Source of the DNA: a virus
Length of the DNA: 58,062 nt
IMG/VR virus record: IMGVR_UViG_3300029120_000017
Strand: one strand, 5' to 3'
Part shown: positions 27,362-52,099 of the stretch, piece after piece
Numbering within the stretch: the first letter of the stretch is position 1
How the letters are laid out: each line of letters starts with the position of its first letter
Position numbers and translations under genes: made by a program
The notes under the pieces: model-generated
What the model was told of the DNA's origin: nothing
Database searches by the model: none
What the model saw: only the letters and a program-made list of their open reading frames with translations

Positions 27362-28033
27362 ATGAAAGATAGACTACTTAAATTCATTAATTACAAAGGA
27401 GTTTCACAAAGACAATTCCTTCTTAAAGCAGGCTTGTCGACCAGCTATTTATCTGTTGTCAAAGATGATTTCGGTGTTTCCGCGTTGTTCAATATTTCAC
27501 AAAACTTTCCCGAGCTAAATATTGAATGGCTTAAAACTGGAAAAGGGGAAATGCTTAATAAAGGATTTGAAAACAACGACAATAACTTTGACAAGCTGTC
27601 TAATTTCTTCTTCGCTAACGGTGAGCAAAAGCCAATCATTACGGAGAGTATTGCTAAGATTCCTAACATTGACGTGTTGGAGCTTGTCAAAAGCGGAAAG
27701 GTTCAGAATCTGGAATACATGGGAGCATTTAATCAATTTCCACCTTTTGATTTCTATTTTAGAAATGATAGGGTATCAATGGAACCTCAATTTATGCGTG
27801 GGGATTTAATTGCGTTGTCAGCACTGCAAGAGAATGCGGTTATTGAAAGCGGCGCTCCTTATATAATAGACACAAAGAGTATTGGATTTATTTTCAGAAA
27901 CGTTTATGAGCGCGGCGATAAGTATGAATGCAAGGTTTCAAATCAAAAAAGTCAGTTGGAAGATATAAATATAGAAAAAAGCGATGTGATTAAAATTTAT
28001 CGTGTCGTTGGCTTAGTAAGAACAAATTTTTAA
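27362..28033 (+). CDS. CI-like repressor (N-terminal HTH, C-terminal S24 LexA-type peptidase domain)
   Basis: 223 aa; N-terminal KGVSQRQFLLKAGLSTSYLS; C-terminal RVSMEPQFMRGDLIAL (S-M-x-P...GD) autocleavage-type motif. Confidence 0.75.
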   Translation: MKDRLLKFINYKGVSQRQFLLKAGLSTSYLSVVKDDFGVSALFNISQNFPELNIEWLKTGKGEMLNKGFENNDNNFDKLSNFFFANGEQKPIITESIAKIPNIDVLELVKSGKVQNLEYMGAFNQFPPFDFYFRNDRVSMEPQFMRGDLIALSALQENAVIESGAPYIIDTKSIGFIFRNVYERGDKYECKVSNQKSQLEDINIEKSDVIKIYRVVGLVRTNF

Positions 28034-28380: not shown

Positions 28381-28417
28381 ATCCACTGGCAAAATTAATT
28401 GTCAGTGGATTTTTTTA
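28381..28417. terminator. bidirectional hairpin terminator between the convergent membrane-protein and integrase genes
   Basis: 10-bp stem 28381-28390 / 28401-28410 flanked by an A-run and a T7 run. Confidence 0.6.
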
Positions 28418-29633
28418 CATAGTCTATTACTTTCTTGATTGCTTGGTCAACCTTCTTTTCATTCCTTCTTATATATATATCTGCGATTTGGTATTGTGGC
28501 TTGTGCCCAAGAGCAGCATCAATAACAGCATCTGGAATATCAATGTCTGCGGCGATAGTCGCCCATGTGTGTCTTGCCCAATATGTCGTAAGATGTGGAA
28601 ACAGAGGCTTGAATATTTTTTCTTTCTTCACTCGTCCATATCTGTTTCTCACATTAATAATGTCTGTCTTTCCTATTTTCTGTAAGTTCTTGTTTATCGT
28701 TCTAACGAAAGACCTTTTATCCTCATGTGTCTCTCCGAAGTTAAGCAGTTTCTTTTCTCCGCGATATTTTCGTATGAGCTTCATTGCTTCGTTTGGAATT
28801 TTAAGACTGCAAAGAACTCCTGTCTTACTCCTTCGGTATGTTATTCTCTGCTCTTCGTTTGGGTGCGGCAAATCAAGCAAATCAACCATGTTTATTCCTG
28901 CGCAATAAAAGGAGATTAGGAAAATGTCAAGATATTTTTGCTGATAATCTTCGCATTTAAAATTCATCAGTGATAATAATTCCTTGATTGTCAAAGAGCG
29001 TTTTTCAGTCTGTTCAGATTTTATTCTGAATTTCCTGAATGGGTAAAATTCTTGTGCTACATAATCTTCACGAATTGCCTCGTTGAATAAGGCGCGAAGA
29101 TTGCGCAAATGAATGGAGCGCGTGTTTACTGAATTTCCTTTTGCCTGCATCCAAGTATCGAAATCGACTAACCATTTGTAATCAATCTCCTCAAATGATA
29201 AATTATCAATATCGCAATAATTGCCAATCTTAATTATTGTGCCTTCGTAAACCTCTTTTGTTCTATCTTTTGTCTTCCTTGAAATGAATATCTTGAAATA
29301 TTCTTTGATATAATGTGGCCGTTCTTCTTCTGTTTCTTCGCGAGGGTTTATTTGTTCACGTATATCTTTGGCCGTCATCTTGTCAAGATTCTTAGATGAA
29401 CTTAATAAGATGATTTGCATCCTAAGATATTCCAATTTCGATTTTAAAACTTGATTCAATCTTTTTGCCAGAGGAGTGTTAATAACCTCTCCGTTCAGCC
29501 ATTCCTCCTTTCTTAAATATACAGATGTCGGAATCATGGAGGATGTATTATTGTGCCGAATTACAATTTTTACACAATATTTTCCAGATTTATTTTTGGC
29601 CCTTGCATCGAGGTACAGATTAATTTTTGCCAT
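28395..29633 (-). CDS. int: tyrosine integrase
   Basis: ATG 29633 (MAKINLYLDARAK...); C-terminal ARHTWATIA...LGH...IYI catalytic-type motifs; next to attP. Confidence 0.9.
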   Translation of the reverse strand: MAKINLYLDARAKNKSGKYCVKIVIRHNNTSSMIPTSVYLRKEEWLNGEVINTPLAKRLNQVLKSKLEYLRMQIILLSSSKNLDKMTAKDIREQINPREETEEERPHYIKEYFKIFISRKTKDRTKEVYEGTIIKIGNYCDIDNLSFEEIDYKWLVDFDTWMQAKGNSVNTRSIHLRNLRALFNEAIREDYVAQEFYPFRKFRIKSEQTEKRSLTIKELLSLMNFKCEDYQQKYLDIFLISFYCAGINMVDLLDLPHPNEEQRITYRRSKTGVLCSLKIPNEAMKLIRKYRGEKKLLNFGETHEDKRSFVRTINKNLQKIGKTDIINVRNRYGRVKKEKIFKPLFPHLTTYWARHTWATIAADIDIPDAVIDAALGHKPQYQIADIYIRRNEKKVDQAIKKVIDYVKKSTDN

Positions 29634-29769
29634 TTGCACGGATTTTGCACGGTTCTACATTTTGATGGATTGCACGTGTTTTGCACGGATTTTCGGCAAA
29701 TTTCGGCATAATACGGCATAATACGGCATAAATTTATGGCTTTAACATTTGAATATAGAGACAAAATAA

Positions 29770-43237: not shown

Positions 43238-44329
43238 TTATGCTGTTTTATCGGTTTCCATAATAAAGAAATCATCAAGACCATAGAATACAGGCGTTGC
43301 CCACATCTCATAGTCGATGAATCGTCCTTTTTCGTTTCGCCAAAAGCCTACAAGTGCATCGTCATACTGGCTATATGTCTTGTTAGGCAGAGGATCAATC
43401 ATTTCAAGAGGGTCTGATACCTTCAACACGGCGACATTCTGAACACATTGGAACACAACACGGTCATCAACGGTCATGTTAATTATACTTCCATCCTGCA
43501 ATTTCACAAAACGGTCAGGCTCTATTGTGATTGTCGGCAACAAAAGGCTTTCAAGATACAAGTTCGCTTCGTTGAACGTGATTTTTGCAGGACTGATGTC
43601 AACCTTGCCAAGTTTCAGTTTGAACGTATCTGCAAACTCCTTGCTCTTGCACATCTTGCGGAATGTGCGTGTACTCATACGCATCTTAACAACCGTCTTA
43701 CCCTTGGCAGACAATTCGTCTACAATACGCTGAATATCAGAAATCGGCGTTGAAGCCTCCTCACCCCATTTGGCGGTAGGATGATATTTCTTCACGCCCA
43801 AATCAATCTTGTAAGTAACATTTGATTTCTTGTTGTTCTTGGCATCAACGGTCTGTGTGCCGCTGAACAAACCTTCATAGTAAAGCAAGTCGATTCGTTT
43901 CTGAGGCGCGATAACTGCTTTTTCAAACGGGTCAAACAAATACTTCACAAGTTTGGCGTAATCGTTAGAAGCATACATCGCAGGAGTGTCATTTCCGTAT
44001 TTATTGCGCAAACGGCCTTCCATGTAGTAATACTGGTCTAATCGGTCATTATCCATCTGCCATTCGTCACCCATGTGCGAAATTGAACCAACAAGCTCAT
44101 TTGCACTTGGCATGGTGTGCGTTGGCTTTTCGCCGTTTTTGTCAATTACACTACCGACCATCGCTGCACTATACTCCGCAATCGCGGCACGATACGTGCG
44201 TGAAGCCTCGTAGTCAATTGTGGCAATCTCATCTTTCCAAAGTGGTTTGTACGTGGAGTTTTTCATTTGCTCCTGCACAAACACATCAAATCTCTTAGGC
44301 TTTTCCAGCTCTTTAATTAGACTATCCAT
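43238..44329 (-). CDS. major capsid protein
   Basis: 363 aa, third gene after the late promoter, preceded by scaffold-like and decoration-like genes (lambda D/E-like order). Confidence 0.7.
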   Translation of the reverse strand: MDSLIKELEKPKRFDVFVQEQMKNSTYKPLWKDEIATIDYEASRTYRAAIAEYSAAMVGSVIDKNGEKPTHTMPSANELVGSISHMGDEWQMDNDRLDQYYYMEGRLRNKYGNDTPAMYASNDYAKLVKYLFDPFEKAVIAPQKRIDLLYYEGLFSGTQTVDAKNNKKSNVTYKIDLGVKKYHPTAKWGEEASTPISDIQRIVDELSAKGKTVVKMRMSTRTFRKMCKSKEFADTFKLKLGKVDISPAKITFNEANLYLESLLLPTITIEPDRFVKLQDGSIINMTVDDRVVFQCVQNVAVLKVSDPLEMIDPLPNKTYSQYDDALVGFWRNEKGRFIDYEMWATPVFYGLDDFFIMETDKTA

Positions 44330-46131: not shown

Positions 46132-46171
46132 CAATATAAAAGAAAGGTAATTGACAACTAACCACCTAAAA

Positions 46172-46579
46172 ATGAGAATTATGAAGTTGATTTACGCAAA
46201 AGATATTAAGGCAATCACGAAGATGTTCAATCTTTCAGAAGACGAGAACTGGTTCTTGAAGAATTTATCAGATTCTATCAATAGCGAGAAATCAGAAATC
46301 TGCATGGATATTCAAGAAGTATTGCTATATGGCACAAGTATCGGTGAAAAGAGAAGTGCTGTTAAGGCTTTGTTGGTGTATTTTGGTGCAAAGGCGCAGA
46401 AAGAGAACGATTTGCGGATGGCATTTGACCAAACCACTTGGAAATTGGCAGATATGCTCAAATGTGGCTCTTACCAAGTGAAGCAATGGTTTAAGTCTAT
46501 TGCAACGAATAAAGACCGATTCGGTAAATTCGTTGAATGCTCTGAAACATTTGGTTTGAATTATTTGGAAATAGCATAA
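46172..46579 (+). CDS. hypothetical protein
   Basis: ATG 46172 (MRIMKLIYAKD...); the track start at 46151 is TTG. Confidence 0.55.
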   Translation: MRIMKLIYAKDIKAITKMFNLSEDENWFLKNLSDSINSEKSEICMDIQEVLLYGTSIGEKRSAVKALLVYFGAKAQKENDLRMAFDQTTWKLADMLKCGSYQVKQWFKSIATNKDRFGKFVECSETFGLNYLEIA

Positions 46580-46941
46580 TGGAAAGTTTAAAGCAGGTTG
46601 GCAACTCCTATAATGAGTTTGTCTATGATAGTGGAAACGAGATTATACCTAATGGCGTAACCCGTTCTAAAGTTATCAACTTTGCAGAAAGAGTGCTTAG
46701 GCGATACGCTTCTCATACTGAGAATTATGACACATATAATGCCAAGCGAACAGATTTAGAGATACGAGCCAATAAGTTGTTCATGTCGGAAAGTCGCTGG
46801 TTCTCTGTAAAGAATGGCAGAATTATTGCTGTGAATGATATACAGGCAAAGGCTTGGTATGAACTTGTTGCTCACAAAGATGCACAGGGTCGTTTAAAGT
46901 CTGTTTCTGTTATAAAGTATCATGATTTTGACCATAAATAG
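46579..46941 (+). CDS. hypothetical protein
   Basis: 120-aa ORF; start overlaps the upstream stop (TAATG). Confidence 0.6.
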   Translation: MESLKQVGNSYNEFVYDSGNEIIPNGVTRSKVINFAERVLRRYASHTENYDTYNAKRTDLEIRANKLFMSESRWFSVKNGRIIAVNDIQAKAWYELVAHKDAQGRLKSVSVIKYHDFDHK

Positions 46942-46976
46942 CATAGCGTAAAAAACAAACAAAACAATATAGAATT

Positions 46977-47354
46977 ATGGAAGCAACAATAAATCAAATA
47001 CAGGAAATAGTGTCAGTTCTGACATCAGACGAGCAGCAGCTACTTAAAGATACCATCAATTACGGAGCATGGGGCGATAGCGATTGGGAGTTTCTTGATG
47101 ATAACGAGAAAGTGGAAACTGTTACAATGTATGGTTACTGCACCAATGACGCTAAGAGAGCTGGGCATTTCAGCGGAAGAAAGGTATCTTCCATGTTCCG
47201 TTCTATTTATAAGAAGTTATGCCCAGCAAATCACAATCAAATAGGCAGATACATTTCACATTGTAATGATTGGTGGGGCGATGGTAGCGGCGATATGCTG
47301 TTCATCAGAAAAGGCTACTATAATGCCTTTGAGGAATGGGCATGGAAAAAGTAA
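46977..47354 (+). CDS. hypothetical protein
   Basis: 125-aa ORF. Confidence 0.6.
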   Translation: MEATINQIQEIVSVLTSDEQQLLKDTINYGAWGDSDWEFLDDNEKVETVTMYGYCTNDAKRAGHFSGRKVSSMFRSIYKKLCPANHNQIGRYISHCNDWWGDGSGDMLFIRKGYYNAFEEWAWKK

Positions 47355-47394
47355 ATAGACTAACAATGAGGCTTTTGCTCAAAATAAACAATCA

Positions 47395-47595
47395 ATGGAA
47401 TACACAATAGAAGAAATACAAACAATGCTGAATATTGTTTCGGCTGTACTTCACAATAGGCGTTATCAGCAAGGTAGCACATTACGCATATCAACGGTTT
47501 ATAATATTGACGATTTCGACATATCGACAATGGAAAAATGGATTGCGTATTGGAAGCAAACAATAGATTCAACAAAACCGACTAAAATTAAATAA
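47395..47595 (+). CDS. hypothetical protein, paralog of 18559-18756
   Basis: 66 aa, ...TVYNIDDFDISTMEKWIAYWKQTIDSTKPTKIK. Confidence 0.6.
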   Translation: MEYTIEEIQTMLNIVSAVLHNRRYQQGSTLRISTVYNIDDFDISTMEKWIAYWKQTIDSTKPTKIK

Positions 47596-47599
47596 TAAT

Positions 47600-47917
47600 A
47601 TGAAGAATAGTCTTTCCAACTTTACGACAAAATGCTTGATTTTTAAAAGATTCTTCTATTTCAAGATGGGTGTGACTACGCACGAAGTTGAAGACACTGA
47701 ACAAGATATGTTTTCGGGAACTGTGTATATTAACCGACATGAATTTATCTGTGTTGAGAAGGAGAAAGACAAATATATGGTGTATATCAATAATCCAGAC
47801 GGACACGATGGCGAGCAATGGGTTTTCGGATATTACGAGGATTTTGAATTGGCTATACAGGTAATGGATGTTATCATAGATAGAGGAGAATATCCTCAGC
47901 CATTAGAAGTCTGGTGA
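47600..47917 (+). CDS. hypothetical protein (alternative start ATG 47666)
   Basis: 105-aa ORF. Confidence 0.5.
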   Translation: MKNSLSNFTTKCLIFKRFFYFKMGVTTHEVEDTEQDMFSGTVYINRHEFICVEKEKDKYMVYINNPDGHDGEQWVFGYYEDFELAIQVMDVIIDRGEYPQPLEVW

Positions 47918-47930
47918 TGGTAATAAGACA

Positions 47931-47993
47931 ATGAGGAAATGTGTTGCATATTGGAAGCAAACAATAGACGCAATAAAACCGACTAAGAAATGA
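47931..47993 (+). pseudogene. 20-codon remnant of the 47395-47595 / 18559-18756 gene family (MRKCVAYWKQTIDAIKPTKK)
   Basis: About 60-nt near-duplicate of 47530-47595, including the 20-nt identity tattggaagcaaacaataga. The following ATGAAGAAT is also duplicated. Confidence 0.55.
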
Positions 47994-48026
47994 AGAATTG
48001 ATAATAACAATGTAAAACATACAGAT

Positions 48027-48377
48027 ATGGCAAAATTAAAAATGATAATTCCCAGATGGAACATTGAAGAAGAAACAGGCTACAAACCTTTCACTACATT
48101 CTGGCAAGATTTCTCTATTGCTGACACATACGGCTTGCAAGCTATTCAAGACACGTTCAACCGTGCCTTTGATGAGTGGAAAGAAGATTACAAATACCTT
48201 ACAGAACTTGTACTTGTTCTTAATCATAAAATTTGCTACCATTATATTGAGAATGGTACAGATGAAGAAAACGTTAAAGCTTATCTTTACAATAAACTCT
48301 GGAATGAAGCCAACGACTACGCATTAGATAACTTGCAAGGTGAGCAAGCTGATTACTTCTATCGCATAACAGATTAA
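48027..48377 (+). CDS. hypothetical protein
   Basis: 116-aa ORF. Confidence 0.6.
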   Translation: MAKLKMIIPRWNIEEETGYKPFTTFWQDFSIADTYGLQAIQDTFNRAFDEWKEDYKYLTELVLVLNHKICYHYIENGTDEENVKAYLYNKLWNEANDYALDNLQGEQADYFYRITD

Positions 48378-48390
48378 GCTAAGAGAAACA

Positions 48391-48594
48391 ATGAATGATA
48401 AAGAAATAAAAGTGCTGCGTCACATTGTAGCTGAATTGCTTAATAACGTGCAATATACGGCAGAAGAAAAGGTTATTGTCGAAACAGAAGACGGAGGATA
48501 TCGCATTTGCGGAACGCTAAGAACTGCAAAATCCAAAATCTATAGCCTTAGTATGTCAGAGCTGAATGTAATGCGAAAATTCGTTGAACAATGA
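48391..48594 (+). CDS. hypothetical protein
   Basis: 67-aa ORF. Confidence 0.55.
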   Translation: MNDKEIKVLRHIVAELLNNVQYTAEEKVIVETEDGGYRICGTLRTAKSKIYSLSMSELNVMRKFVEQ

Positions 48595-48866
48595 AAGTAA
48601 GACTATTGAAGAAATTACGCATGCGAGCTTCTATCCTTCTTGAATTGCACGACTATGGAGCGAAGTACTCCAAGATGGTAGGAAATTGTAGATATGTACT
48701 CGTCAGAAGAGATAATAAAGAGTTCATGGCTAATGGCAATAACATTGGATATCTTCTAAATGAGGCAGATAGAATAAAGCGCAATTACATCCTTTCAGAG
48801 GTAGAGGCATACAGAAAGAAAAAGGGAAAATCAAGGCAGGAATACAAAATCATAAAATTGGAATAA
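48591..48866 (+). CDS. hypothetical basic protein
   Basis: 91-aa ORF, ATGA overlap with the upstream gene. Confidence 0.55.
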   Translation: MKVRLLKKLRMRASILLELHDYGAKYSKMVGNCRYVLVRRDNKEFMANGNNIGYLLNEADRIKRNYILSEVEAYRKKKGKSRQEYKIIKLE

Positions 48867-48883
48867 AATAAAACGCAATTATG

Positions 48884-48914
48884 TTTGTGGTTACACATAA
48901 AAGTGGTATCTTTG
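48884..48914 (+). promoter_or_regulatory. Bacteroidota-type promoter (TTTG-N19-TATCTTTG) upstream of the antirepressor leader
   Basis: TTTG 48884-48887, TATCTTTG 48907-48914. Confidence 0.5.
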
Positions 48915-48918
48915 CGGT

Positions 48919-49085
48919 GCTAAAACTTTATTTATCGAAGGAATTATTACCATAATAGCCCTTTCTGTCCTCTTTGAGGATACATATAAGCGGTATTGTA
49001 CCCCCGTGGAATTGCTGTAATGGCATTCCGAACCTACCTTCGATAAGTAGTTTTAGCAGCGGGAAAGGCAATACCGCTATTTTTA
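48919..49085 (+). promoter_or_regulatory. structured about 165-nt 5' leader with alternative terminator / antiterminator pairings
   Basis: Long-range helix 48919-48941 / 49037-49057 (8 + 10 bp). Internal hairpins. Terminator agcgg...ccgct + atttttatt (49058-49085). Its 3' half (49069-49078) can instead pair perfectly (10 bp) with 48989-48998. Confidence 0.45.
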
Positions 49086-49115
49086 TTGCCTATAATGCTA
49101 AAAAAAATTATCGTT

Positions 49116-49949
49116 ATGACTGAAAATCAAAATCTTACAGTGATTGACAGTGAGGTTATTTGCAATCAACAAGTCAATGTTTATGGCACAATGGAAAAGC
49201 CTTTGTTCTTGGCTAAAGATGTAGCAAATTGGCTTGGTCATTCAAATCCATCAATGATGTTGTCTAAAATAGATAAGGAAGATAAAATTATTATTTATGC
49301 AAAGTTAAGTTTGCAAAATTCGGATATAACTAATGCTTATATCTCCTCAGAATCAGATAGTTGCAAATCAAACAACTACCTTTTCCTTACCGAATTTGGC
49401 GTTTACGAAGTCTTGATGCAATCGCGCCTGCCAAAAGCTAAGGAGTTCAAGAAAGGGGTGAAAGAAATCCTTAAACGAATTAGGCTCACAGGTAAATATG
49501 AAGCAGACACACATTCCGATGATGACCGCTCCAGAGATTTAATAGAAGCCCTAAAAGAGAATAACGCTCTGCTGCGCCAAGCATTACAGGCAAGTACTAA
49601 TACAAGGCAGCATGAGGCAAATAACCAATACTGTGATGATGCACCGAAAAACGGCCCTTTCTTCAATATTACAACGATAGCAAAGAAATTGAAGACCACG
49701 GCTCAGTACTTGAACAATATGTTGTCAAATAACGGATATATCGTCAATATTAATGGCTCTTGGTATCCTACGGAAAAACTGACAAACCTTCCAATGGTGG
49801 TGTATTGCAAAAGGACATATCATGTTTTTGGTGATGATATTAAGGCGTATGTCGCGTGGAATCATCTTGGTTTCAACCTAATCAATCAGCTCTTCCAAAT
49901 GGAAAATAGCGACAAGTCTTTGTTTGACGAAGAATCGCGCCCTTTCTAA
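49116..49949 (+). CDS. antirepressor (Bro-N domain plus KilA-C/ANT-like C-terminal domain)
   Basis: ATG 49116 (MTENQNLTVIDSE...); PLFLAKDVANWLGH...FLTEFGVYEVLMQSRLPKAKEFKKGV Bro-N pattern; the track start at 49086 is TTG inside the terminator tail. Confidence 0.7.
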   Translation: MTENQNLTVIDSEVICNQQVNVYGTMEKPLFLAKDVANWLGHSNPSMMLSKIDKEDKIIIYAKLSLQNSDITNAYISSESDSCKSNNYLFLTEFGVYEVLMQSRLPKAKEFKKGVKEILKRIRLTGKYEADTHSDDDRSRDLIEALKENNALLRQALQASTNTRQHEANNQYCDDAPKNGPFFNITTIAKKLKTTAQYLNNMLSNNGYIVNINGSWYPTEKLTNLPMVVYCKRTYHVFGDDIKAYVAWNHLGFNLINQLFQMENSDKSLFDEESRPF

Positions 49950-50004
49950 AATCCAAAATAAACAAATCCATCTTATTAATTAAACCACATAAAATTTCAC
50001 AACA

Positions 50005-50265
50005 ATGGCTGAATTTAACAACAAGAAAGCAAACGAGATTATGAACGGAGTTATTGATTTCAACACAAACGATTTCGCCCAGTGTCTTAACCAAATGGCT
50101 CTCGTAAGAGAAAACGTTTATCAGATTCTCAGTAAGACTTATCCCGAGGAGGAAGTTGAACACATGATGGATAATTTCAATTTTGATTACCACTTCGGCA
50201 AGTTGATTGAATCGCTTGGCTCGCTTCAATGGGAGCAAGTTAAACACAAGACGTTAGTCGGGTAA
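50005..50265 (+). CDS. hypothetical protein
   Basis: 86-aa ORF, last gene of the plus block. Confidence 0.55.
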   Translation: MAEFNNKKANEIMNGVIDFNTNDFAQCLNQMALVRENVYQILSKTYPEEEVEHMMDNFNFDYHFGKLIESLGSLQWEQVKHKTLVG

Positions 50266-50402: not shown

Positions 50403-50487
50403 GGGGGGAGCGTTTAATCCCCGAAAGGGGACACGTCCCCCGTTCCTACCACCATCCAGCATTTTTATGTTGGATGGTGGCGTTTTA
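50403..50487 (+). ncRNA. putative GC-rich small RNA, antisense to the last about 20 nt of the MuF gene
   Basis: TACTTTTG -7-like motif at 50389-50396. GC-rich segment 50401-50442 containing ccccGAAAgggg. Then a 14-bp stem (incl. one G-U pair), 4-nt loop hairpin (50449-50480) followed by cgtttta. Confidence 0.35.
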
Positions 50488-52099
50488 TAATACTACCTTT
50501 GTCTAAGAAATAAACTTCTTGAAATAACTTCCATTGTGTTGTGTTCTTTAATCCATAGAATTTTGAAATCGCTAAATCTATAATGTCATAGTTGTTGTAA
50601 TTCTCTGGAAAGAAAACAACAGCAACAGCGCAATTCGGCTTTGTTGCGCAATGTTTTAGCGCACGTAGAATATTGTTTGCCGTTCCTGTTTCTGCTGCTG
50701 CAATCTCAAATCGTTTTCCGTTCCAAGTGCCTTCTACGTTCTTCATATTCTTTACTGTGTGGTCTTCCTTTTGAAGGATAACGGAATAACCATTATCAAA
50801 CGCGATTTTTTGAACATCGGTTTCATACCAGCCTTTCTTTTTGTCTAAATTATGTTCTCTATGCGTGGCCATGAATGCACCATTCTCATGATTGAATTTT
50901 ACATTTGTATAATTCTGGTCATTTAGATAACCTTGGTATTTCCTTTGATTAATCTCATATTGTACATTTCTCCAGCCAAGCAATTTGCCTATTTGTGCCT
51001 GATTCTCTTTAACGAAGTAGGGGAGCTTGTTGTTTTTCCTCGCCTTATTAAGTTTCTCTTCATTAGCTCTACACCACTTATTAAAGACTGATGGAAATCC
51101 TTTTATTTTATTCGGAGAGACATAGCGTTTGTAATCATCTTCCGACAACGCGCGTAGCTTCTTCCACTCTTCGCTGTCCCTATCCATCAATATAGATGAC
51201 ATAGAACAACGGCAGCGCGGATGCCAGCCAGTGAAAACAAAATCAGAAGGGTAATCGCCTTGAAGCTCGTCACATATATCTGTCAGCGGATGGTTCTTCG
51301 ATAAACGAATACGGATGCCAAGAACAAATGGCTCTTCGCTCCATCGCTTACAATTCGCGTAATTGTAAGCCATATTTATTTCTGTCATCGCAAGGCGCAA
51401 ACCATTTTGACGTGCAGAGCGATATACGCCACGGCCCACCTTTTCCAAATCTTCCTTGATAAACCTCACCTTTCCATCTTGACCTATTACCCTCCTGCGC
51501 CATTCAACGACATCTTTCTTCGTGCCATCGCTCATCAACTTTTTAAGGTGATAACGGCGGTACATCATGTTTGGGTTATTTAGCTTGTCACGAACGGCAC
51601 GGCCTAACTGCTCAGCAGAATTGCCGTTCTTTAGAGCATCCTCGATAGACTGCGACATCGCCAACTCAAACTCTGCCTTAGTTTGCTGAGTGTAATTCCA
51701 AACGCTTGTGGATAGGTCAAGCCCACCCATATTATGTAACCGCTGCTCACGGAAGGCTTCGGCTGTCGTTTTACGCCAAGATTTCACATCGTCCTCATCA
51801 AAACGCGTCATTCCACTAAATGCCATCTGTGAAGTATTCGATGATAACAAAATAGCCTGCGTGATTCCTGCTTGAATTGTGGCGGTCATTTGAGCGAAAT
51901 ACTCATTTAGCAACCTGTCAATTTTTTCTTTTGCTGCTCTTGGGCAATGCTTCGCAATAGAGAATAATTCGTCTGAGGAAACGTTTTTGGGCGCTTCCCC
52001 TGTGGCGGCGATTAGTTCACGAACCAGCGTTTCATATTGCTTTCTTAGTTTATCGTCTGCCTTCAATAATAACTTGGTGATATTCTCCTCCTGGCTCAT
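50465..52099 (-). CDS. MuF / SPP1 gp7-family head morphogenesis protein with an about 210-aa C-terminal extension
   Basis: 544 aa; NHPLTDICDELQGDYPSDFVFTGWHPRCRC core motif around residue 300; long extra C-terminal region. Confidence 0.7.
   Translation of the reverse strand: MSQEENITKLLLKADDKLRKQYETLVRELIAATGEAPKNVSSDELFSIAKHCPRAAKEKIDRLLNEYFAQMTATIQAGITQAILLSSNTSQMAFSGMTRFDEDDVKSWRKTTAEAFREQRLHNMGGLDLSTSVWNYTQQTKAEFELAMSQSIEDALKNGNSAEQLGRAVRDKLNNPNMMYRRYHLKKLMSDGTKKDVVEWRRRVIGQDGKVRFIKEDLEKVGRGVYRSARQNGLRLAMTEINMAYNYANCKRWSEEPFVLGIRIRLSKNHPLTDICDELQGDYPSDFVFTGWHPRCRCSMSSILMDRDSEEWKKLRALSEDDYKRYVSPNKIKGFPSVFNKWCRANEEKLNKARKNNKLPYFVKENQAQIGKLLGWRNVQYEINQRKYQGYLNDQNYTNVKFNHENGAFMATHREHNLDKKKGWYETDVQKIAFDNGYSVILQKEDHTVKNMKNVEGTWNGKRFEIAAAETGTANNILRALKHCATKPNCAVAVVFFPENYNNYDIIDLAISKFYGLKNTTQWKLFQEVYFLDKGSIIKRHHPT

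Follow-up and report, generated by a model that had tools for sequence, protein, structure and literature searches.

The leader of the antirepressor gene in the phage analysed here carries a compact RNA with the architecture of c4-type antisense RNAs, and we propose, with a probability of about 0.68, that this module holds the antirepressor off. The RNA lies in a 58,062-nucleotide stretch of viral DNA (IMG/VR record IMGVR_UViG_3300029120_000017), the whole of which is referred to below as the window. Antirepressors decide prophage silence. If our proposal is correct, many temperate Bacteroidales phages of the human gut would run their antirepressor by a c4-type RNA that current Rfam models miss, and its closing stem appears to double as a terminator ahead of the gene. 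Interchangeable matched alleles would then define RNA-based immunity groups among co-resident gut phages, an analogue of the heteroimmunity of phages P1 and P7. A description of the family would also improve the annotation of phage regulatory regions.

Organization of the leader

The features of the leader are collected in Table 1. A first-pass annotation, made from the sequence alone, had described a promoter of the form TTTG-N19-TATCTTTG followed by a stretch free of open reading frames, and both points hold. The promoter fits the Bacteroidetes type, a TAnnTTTG motif lies 2-3 nt 5' of the first helix in almost all relatives, and the leader of approximately 170 nt, which contains no credible ORF, leads into the antirepressor gene. 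The leader has a folding energy of -60.1 kcal/mol (z = -4.5 when compared to shuffled sequences), and a model search located a single copy of the element in the window, with a score of 142.8 bits.

Table 1. Features of the antirepressor leader and gene (window coordinates)
Feature	Position	Strand	Basis
Promoter, Bacteroidetes-type: TTTG 48884-48887, 19 nt, TATCTTTG 48907-48914	48884-48914	+	read from sequence
Helix P1 5' strand, a1/b1-like site: P1a UGCUAAAACU 48918-48927, P1b AUUUAUCGAAGG 48930-48941	48918-48941	+	duplex energy, covariation
Spacer with two hairpins: 48945-48949/48953-48957 and 48967-48972/48976-48981	48945-48981	+	folds
Closing stem 5' strand AGCGGUAUUG (the 'antiterminator' strand of the first-pass annotation)	48989-48998	+	covaries with 49069-49078
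Internal loop UAC(C), then inner-stem 5' strand CCCG 49003-49006	48999-49006	+	pair counts, RNAalifold
Hairpin 1, conserved loop NNUAAUR (here UGUAAUG)	49007-49030	+	compensatory changes in all 8 pairs
Hairpin 2, CUAC/GUAG, loop CUUCGAUAA 49038-49046 (b'-like antisense loop)	49034-49050	+	predicted fold
Single-stranded tail GUUUUAGCA (a'-like antisense segment)	49050-49058	+	complementary to 48918-48926 and 49096-49103
Inner-stem 3' strand CGGG 49060-49063, internal loop AAAGG 49064-49068, closing-stem 3' strand CAAUACCGCU 49069-49078	49060-49078	+	pair counts, RNAalifold
U-rich tract AUUUUUAUU, abutting closing stem; probable intrinsic termination site and small-RNA 3' end	49079-49087	+	U count in relatives
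AUUGCC, able to pair with GGCAAU (49067-49072) in read-through transcripts	49085-49090	+	minimum-energy fold
Antirepressor start region, a2/b2-like target: AUG 49095-49097, UGCUAAAA 49096-49103, UUAUCG 49108-49113	49095-49113	+	pairing energies, matched alleles
Antirepressor gene, Bro-N + KilAC/ANT; second in-frame ATG at 49116	49095-49949	+	Pfam, ORFs

The long-range helix reported in the first-pass annotation (48919-48941 with 49037-49057) was recovered with slightly wider limits, 48918-48941 with 49037-49058; we call it helix P1, as distinct from phage P1. It is bipartite, with segments of 10 bp and 12 bp and a 2-nt bulge between them, and has a duplex energy of -27.6 kcal/mol. The antisense tail and hairpin 2 of the c4-like RNA are both complementary to its 5' strand, which duplicates the target further upstream in the transcript, in the manner of the a1/b1 sites of the immI-type c4 system of phage P1. 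The Rfam c4-a1b1 model gave no match to the window.

At least three hairpins had been claimed for the interior of this domain, and the folds display them at 48945-48957, 48967-48981 and 49007-49030, together with a fourth at 49034-49050. The second spacer hairpin (48967-48981) has a U-rich loop, and its counterpart in most other classes (for example L139, L135 and L012) is GGCAUUUUUUAUGCC. This hairpin is conserved in the spacer that separates the upstream site from the c4-like RNA, and elements of the c4-2 type as well as variant ones retain it.

The 10-bp pairing between 48989-48998 and 49069-49078 is the closing stem of an RNA of approximately 90 nt (48989-49078). Within this RNA, hairpin 1 aligns with hairpin 1 of c4-2. 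A hairpin is predicted at the place of hairpin 2 in every class, with an allele-specific loop that differs between lineages; in the window, the loop is complementary to both 48932-48940 and 49108-49113.

Resemblances to other known motifs were considered by eye for parts of the structure and set aside. Hairpin 1 is not a T-loop, as its first two loop bases vary, and the internal loop lacks the G-A pair of a K-turn. The similarity to the ACANCCCC bulge of the NAD+ (nadA) RNA found no support in Rfam, and a tRNA-like minihelix for RNase P would have the wrong strand polarity.

Covariation in related phages

DNA-pattern scans of viral, genome and metagenome collections yielded 78 loci with 65 distinct sequences, mostly from the human gut. 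Relatives were also retrieved by protein, independently of the RNA sequence, and here the element was found directly upstream in 74 of the 77 loci that encode relatives of the Rha-KilAC antirepressors; ahead of distant Bro-N relatives, it was not found at that position. One GenBank phage fragment carries a related leader, which is a partial match, unannotated and located ahead of a different Bro-N gene, while the commonest class had no match among GenBank phages. A looser pattern, GTACCCCCGTGG...CCGA, was tried as an element finder and rejected, having returned mainly chance loci. Literature searches did not turn up any account of this Bacteroidales class.

Covariation was evaluated in two alignments, a MAFFT alignment of 22 sequences and a larger, model-based one of 47 rows. 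The score for the whole structure was 0.535 in the 22-sequence alignment versus 0.175 for shuffles (0 of 500 shuffles reached it) and 0.422 versus 0.137 in the larger alignment, and slid-helix controls gave at most 0.094. Covariation backs helix P1, the closing stem, the inner stem and hairpin 1, and G-U pairs fix the folded strand as the + strand. The first-pass annotation had proposed that homologous leaders be aligned for covariation; over approximately 150 related phage loci, both the long-range helix and the 10-bp pairing covary.

For the outer part of helix P1, 96-98% of cells are paired in the two alignments, and the pairs altered on both sides amount to 6 of 8 (22-sequence alignment, 98% paired) and 7 of 9. 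The closing stem is 92-96% paired and every variable pair is compensatory in both alignments; in the MAFFT alignment of 22 sequences, 7 of its 10 pairs are altered on both sides, with 96% paired. The pairing claimed by the first-pass annotation is thus real. The inner stem is 100% paired, with a single G-C to A-U exchange in one lineage, and is swapped for UAUACG/CGUAUA or CGUGU/ACACG in variant classes. When RNAalifold was applied to the 90-nt segment alone, it returned the closing stem, the inner stem, hairpin 1 and hairpin 2, with compensatory changes in 19 of the 26 pairs.

Antisense strands and their targets

The antisense segments (49038-49058) pair with 49096-49113, and the start region of the gene is a copy of the 5' sequence of the transcript. 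This complementarity to the translation start of the antirepressor corresponds to the a2/b2 sites of the immI-type c4 system of phage P1. When 91 distinct sequences were compared, the energy of the antisense segments with their own start region was -18.1 +/- 3.7 kcal/mol, versus -9.6 +/- 2.9 kcal/mol with those of other classes, and the own target beat every other class's target in 62 of the 91. Start-codon complementarity is weak in the lineages L001 and L166.

In the largest family, which has 2 outer and 5 inner alleles, the three strands are matched in 22 of 23 combinations, and the exceptional one looks chimeric. Within the allele sets, helix P1 (-22 to -24 kcal/mol) and the start-codon pairing (-17 to -21 kcal/mol) are nearly isoenergetic. 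Variation in the leader, otherwise almost invariant, peaks in the columns of the antisense and target strands, which is the pattern that antisense RNAs would be expected to show, and the initial codons of the protein change with the RNA alleles. A target-site duplication left by a mobile element is an unlikely source of the repeats, which are imperfect, vary in length and are explained by pairing.

Several loci depart from the simple arrangement. In L176 (metagenome contig OCAA01010166.1), the antisense strand is of a different allele from the one shared by the 5' strand and the start-codon copy, and helix P1 reaches only -9.3 kcal/mol; natural recombination or a chimeric assembly may account for this locus. 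A second element, whose antisense and target strands differ from those of the first, occurs in L264 (1988-2182), L299 (2974-3165) and L188 (4128-4243), where it precedes a second antirepressor-type gene or, in L188, stands in tandem. The second copies in L264 and L299 have a different core, without the UAAUR hairpin.

Relation to c4-2 and to other phage antisense RNAs

An Infernal scan of the window against Rfam, as had been proposed in the first-pass annotation, gave no match at gathering thresholds. A search of 48700-49300 with E values up to 10 returned no C4, c4-2, c4-a1b1, isrK or riboswitch, but chance matches only, such as mir-454. The window does not reach the 41-bit gathering score of c4-2 (RF02944, clan CL00128). 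The elements of L303, L308 and L306, which occupy the same position upstream of homologous Rha genes, are members of that family, with 50.5, 50.5 and 43.8 bits. Model R2, which was built from the window's class alone, detects these c4-2 elements with 35 bits (E ~2e-7) and 20 bits; variant second copies score 18-21 bits. It does not detect the c4 RNA of phage P1 (4.7 bits), and kinship to the latter therefore rests on architecture and on the bridge that c4-2 provides. Weinberg et al. (2017, PMC5737381) describe the family c4-2 itself as probably a distant homolog of an RNA already known.

The architecture of the c4-2 consensus is found in the window: a 10-bp closing stem, a 3-nt internal loop starting with UA, a 4-bp inner stem, two hairpins, a single-stranded stretch and 3' Us. 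Both types of element are located just upstream of homologous Rha-KilAC genes, with an upstream strand and a start-codon copy present. The window differs from c4-2 in that its inner stem is C-rich on the 5' side (G-rich in c4-2), its 3' internal loop is AAAGG, the loop of hairpin 1 is UAAUR and the tail is longer, measuring 8-9 nt across classes. Because the window matches no Rfam model and R2 misses the c4 RNA of phage P1, the leader is best read as a Bacteroidales subclass of c4-type antisense RNA and not as a member of RF02944 or RF01695.

The module shares with the immI region of phages P1 and P7 (C4, RF01695 and RF03163) a promoter, upstream sites, a structured antisense RNA, downstream sites and an antirepressor. 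In the record of phage P1 the order is promoter, a1, b1, c4, a2, b2, icd and ant1/2, and the C4 RNA, as modelled by Rfam, consists of a closing stem, two hairpins and a tail; in the window, too, the element is upstream of the antirepressor in the same transcription unit. The a2/b2 sites of phage P1 lie at the ribosome-binding region, and the small ORF icd precedes ant, as a 49-aa ORF does in the L012 class. In both phages the module is placed among morphogenesis genes of the opposite strand. The c4 RNA blocks ant translation and is the source of P1/P7 heteroimmunity, to which the allelic antisense/target sets described here run parallel (PMC12197685). The link to RNA control of antirepressors in P1 and P7, which the first-pass annotation had drawn, is thus upheld by the c4/c4-2 architecture and by the matching pair of target sites.

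The element also differs from phage P1 c4. No similarity in sequence or at the level of models was found, the hosts here are Bacteroidales, and the complementary stretches measure approximately 9 + 9-12 nt versus 7 + 8 nt in phage P1. The c4 RNA of phage P1 is cut out by processing and ends in a CCACC-like sequence, whereas the closing stem in the window is followed by a U-run. RNase P is involved in the processing of P1 c4. Judging from the sequence, termination at the U-run may make the 3' end of the RNA and also gate transcription of ant, unlike in phage P1.

The CI RNA of satellite phage P4 (seqA, seqB, seqC) and IsrK of Gifsy-1 are also leader-derived sRNAs with complementary sequences up- and downstream on the transcript. 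In both, one promoter gives rise to short terminated and read-through isoforms, of which the short one acts on the long one (PMC4825925). P4 CI, unlike the module proposed here, operates by premature termination of replication genes and not by a translational block of an antirepressor, and IsrK activates rather than represses. The sar RNA of P22 (immI) is likewise antisense to the ant start region (PMC12197685), but it is encoded on the opposite strand across the ant start, whereas the antisense of the window is on the same strand, upstream and on the same transcript.

Probable termination and alternative folds

A U-run is found directly 3' of the conserved 10-bp helix in all classes, with at least 6 U within the 9 nt after the closing stem in 49 of 63 distinct relatives, and the c4-2 consensus likewise ends in Us. 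Since the closing stem is conserved and abuts the U-run, it is the likeliest terminator stem, as well as the body of the small RNA. The 10-bp closing stem and the 4-bp inner stem abut the U-tract but enclose approximately 70 nt, and a simple terminator scan made no call.

The first-pass annotation had assigned these roles the other way round, with a short agcgg/ccgct hairpin as the terminator and the 10-bp helix as the antiterminator. The short hairpin is present in the window, but covariation is absent, and 9 and 7 of 22 relatives, respectively, leave its two central pairs open; it cannot form in approximately one third of relatives, and a consensus terminator scan did not call it. The supposed antiterminator helix is the conserved closing stem at the U-run, and the supposed terminator is not conserved. 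The distance of 30 nt between terminator and ant ATG probably needs revision as well: the antirepressor probably starts at the in-frame ATG at 49095, approximately 10 nt past the U-run, and not at 49116.

The GGCAAU/AUUGCC pairing competes with the closing stem and covaries by eye (GGCAAC/GUUGC, GGCAAG/CUUGCC, GGCGGA/UUCCG). The sequence UUGCCUAUAAU(G), which runs from the U-run to the start codon (49088-49097), is kept across distant classes beyond the need of the GGCAAU pairing. The unconstrained minimum-energy fold contains helix P1 and the GGCAAU/AUUGCC hairpin and leaves the start region free. When the 5' strand is blocked, the predicted folds contain the closing-stem hairpin in most classes and a start-codon hairpin in others. 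The alternative hairpin, in which the start region pairs with 49031-49072 and GGCAAU/AUUGCC is also formed, has an energy of -24.0 kcal/mol. As modelled, this folding behaviour supports a switch.

Proposed mechanism

According to our model, transcription would start a few bases before 48918, and the transcript would present, in order, a decoy resembling a1/b1 (48918-48941), the compact RNA of approximately 90 nt (48989-49078) and a decoy copy over the start codon (49095-49113). The closing stem and the U-run would end most transcripts and free the small RNA, whose loop and tail would bind read-through ant mRNA around the start codon and prevent its translation. This block could take place in cis, and an RNA supplied by a resident prophage would probably exert it in trans as well. 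Each matched allele set would amount to an immunity specificity, as in phage P1 versus P7.

Helix P1 would mask the antisense segments by pairing them with the upstream site. It would probably hinder the closing stem too, because that stem must enclose the whole 3' strand of helix P1 with only 1-2 linker bases; read-through with an open start codon would be the ON state, and helix P1 would probably be both antiterminator and anti-sequestor. The argument that helix P1 and the closing stem would exclude each other is a steric one, and a kink at the conserved bulge of the 5' strand might permit both.

The allele pattern, together with the precedent of c4, P4 CI and IsrK, suggests by analogy that the RNA acts in trans (PMC12197685, PMC4825925). 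A point against this is that an equally stable intramolecular helix P1 would mask the antisense in an unprocessed short RNA, so that trans action would need processing or refolding.

The same masking is in keeping with a leader switch that works in cis only, without any trans-acting RNA, and in which the nascent leader would partition kinetically among three folds: helix P1 with GGCAAU/AUUGCC, giving read-through and a free start codon; the closing stem with the U-run, giving termination; and the long hairpin over the start codon, from which no translation would occur. How fast transcription runs, the temperature or a host protein would set the balance. For every class, the predictions indeed yield three mutually exclusive folds that are close in energy, and all the strands needed are on one transcript. 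A switch of this kind, however, offers no reason for the antisense and target strands to change fastest, for the combinatorial matched alleles, or for the different strands in copies within one genome (L264, L188), and both c4 and P4 CI, the known relatives, are trans-acting (PMC12197685, PMC4825925). We consider it an unlikely explanation.

Conservation of the core

A second point against a c4-type antisense RNA is that the conservation of UAC, CCCCCG, UAAUG and AGCGGGAAAGG goes beyond what a simple antisense scaffold would need. The first-pass annotation had suggested a riboswitch-like attenuator, possibly of a new RNA class, in which the core would bind a small molecule or protein and decide which stem forms next to the U-run, such that a host signal would gate induction. 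Such a sensor would account for the approximately 20 junction and loop nucleotides that are conserved across lineages with differing helices, and for a pseudoknotted topology beside a U-run with an alternative pairing over the start codon.

Part of the loop and junction conservation is nevertheless ascertainment, as the patterns used for collection contained these motifs and partly imposed the invariance of the core. Relatives retrieved by protein display core changes (CCCCCA/UGGG, AAAGAUGG, AAAGA), and in L264b, L303, L209, L309 and L310 the entire core is a variant one, while the scaffold, the antisense strand and the target strands are retained. Neither a ligand core in all members nor an association with genes of one metabolite was found; the element was seen only ahead of phage antirepressor-type genes, with 3 matches in 185,579 species genomes. 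The sister elements are Rfam c4-2, an sRNA family, and the core is replaced in variant classes, so that the proposal of a riboswitch-like, possibly new class is not supported. We judge a riboswitch-like attenuator quite improbable.

Equally doubtful is the combination of both ideas, in which the core (the UAC/AAAGG loop, CCCCCG/CGGG and the UAAUR loop) would be a sensor bolted onto a c4-type RNA, and a metabolite or protein would decide on the closing stem. If it were true, antirepressor release, and with it the induction of prophages in gut Bacteroidales, would respond to a physiological signal and not to DNA damage.

It is most improbable that the element is a free-standing sRNA gene with targets elsewhere in host or phage that merely adjoins ant, for although it has its own promoter and a terminator-like end, and L022 differs in downstream arrangement, covariation between the RNA and the start-codon copy is seen in almost all classes, the position is fixed at 10-36 nt upstream of the ATG across relatives, and no convincing other target of the antisense strands was found in the 58-kb window (best approximately -22 kcal/mol, versus -27.6 kcal/mol for the cis site).

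Genomic setting of the antirepressor module

The antirepressor product matches the Pfam families Bro-N (4.2e-16) and ANT (8.5e-06). In relatives, the genes downstream of the element encode Bro-N + ANT, Rha + ANT or AntA-like + ANT proteins, or consist of a short ORF followed by a KilA-N-like antirepressor gene. The phage is temperate: it has an integrase gene (28395-29639) and a repressor-like gene (27362-28033).

Together with eight small ORFs that match neither Pfam nor PHROG, the antirepressor module makes up an island on the + strand (46151-50265), which is flanked on the - strand by the major head gene (43238-44329) and a head-morphogenesis gene (50465-52099). This placement resembles that of immI in P22 and P1; in P22 the ant module is embedded in the late region. 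The head-morphogenesis gene (50465-52099, -) encodes a protein of 544 aa that matches head-morphogenesis PHROGs and phrog_16625 'Bxa ADP-ribosyl transferase' (5.2e-57), and has no Pfam match. Between the convergent ant module and head gene, a 14-bp GC-rich inverted repeat with T-runs (50449-50480) looks like a bidirectional terminator.

Two contigs of relatives showed further features. In L139, two convergent Rha-like antirepressor-type genes (652-1389, +, and 2010-2879, -) are found within 1.5 kb, and the element precedes one of them only. In the Parabacteroides contig L135, the segment 954-1097, approximately 6 kb from the element, matched two Bacteroidetes sRNAs of Rfam below threshold, FopS (44.7 bits; gathering score 56) and GibS.
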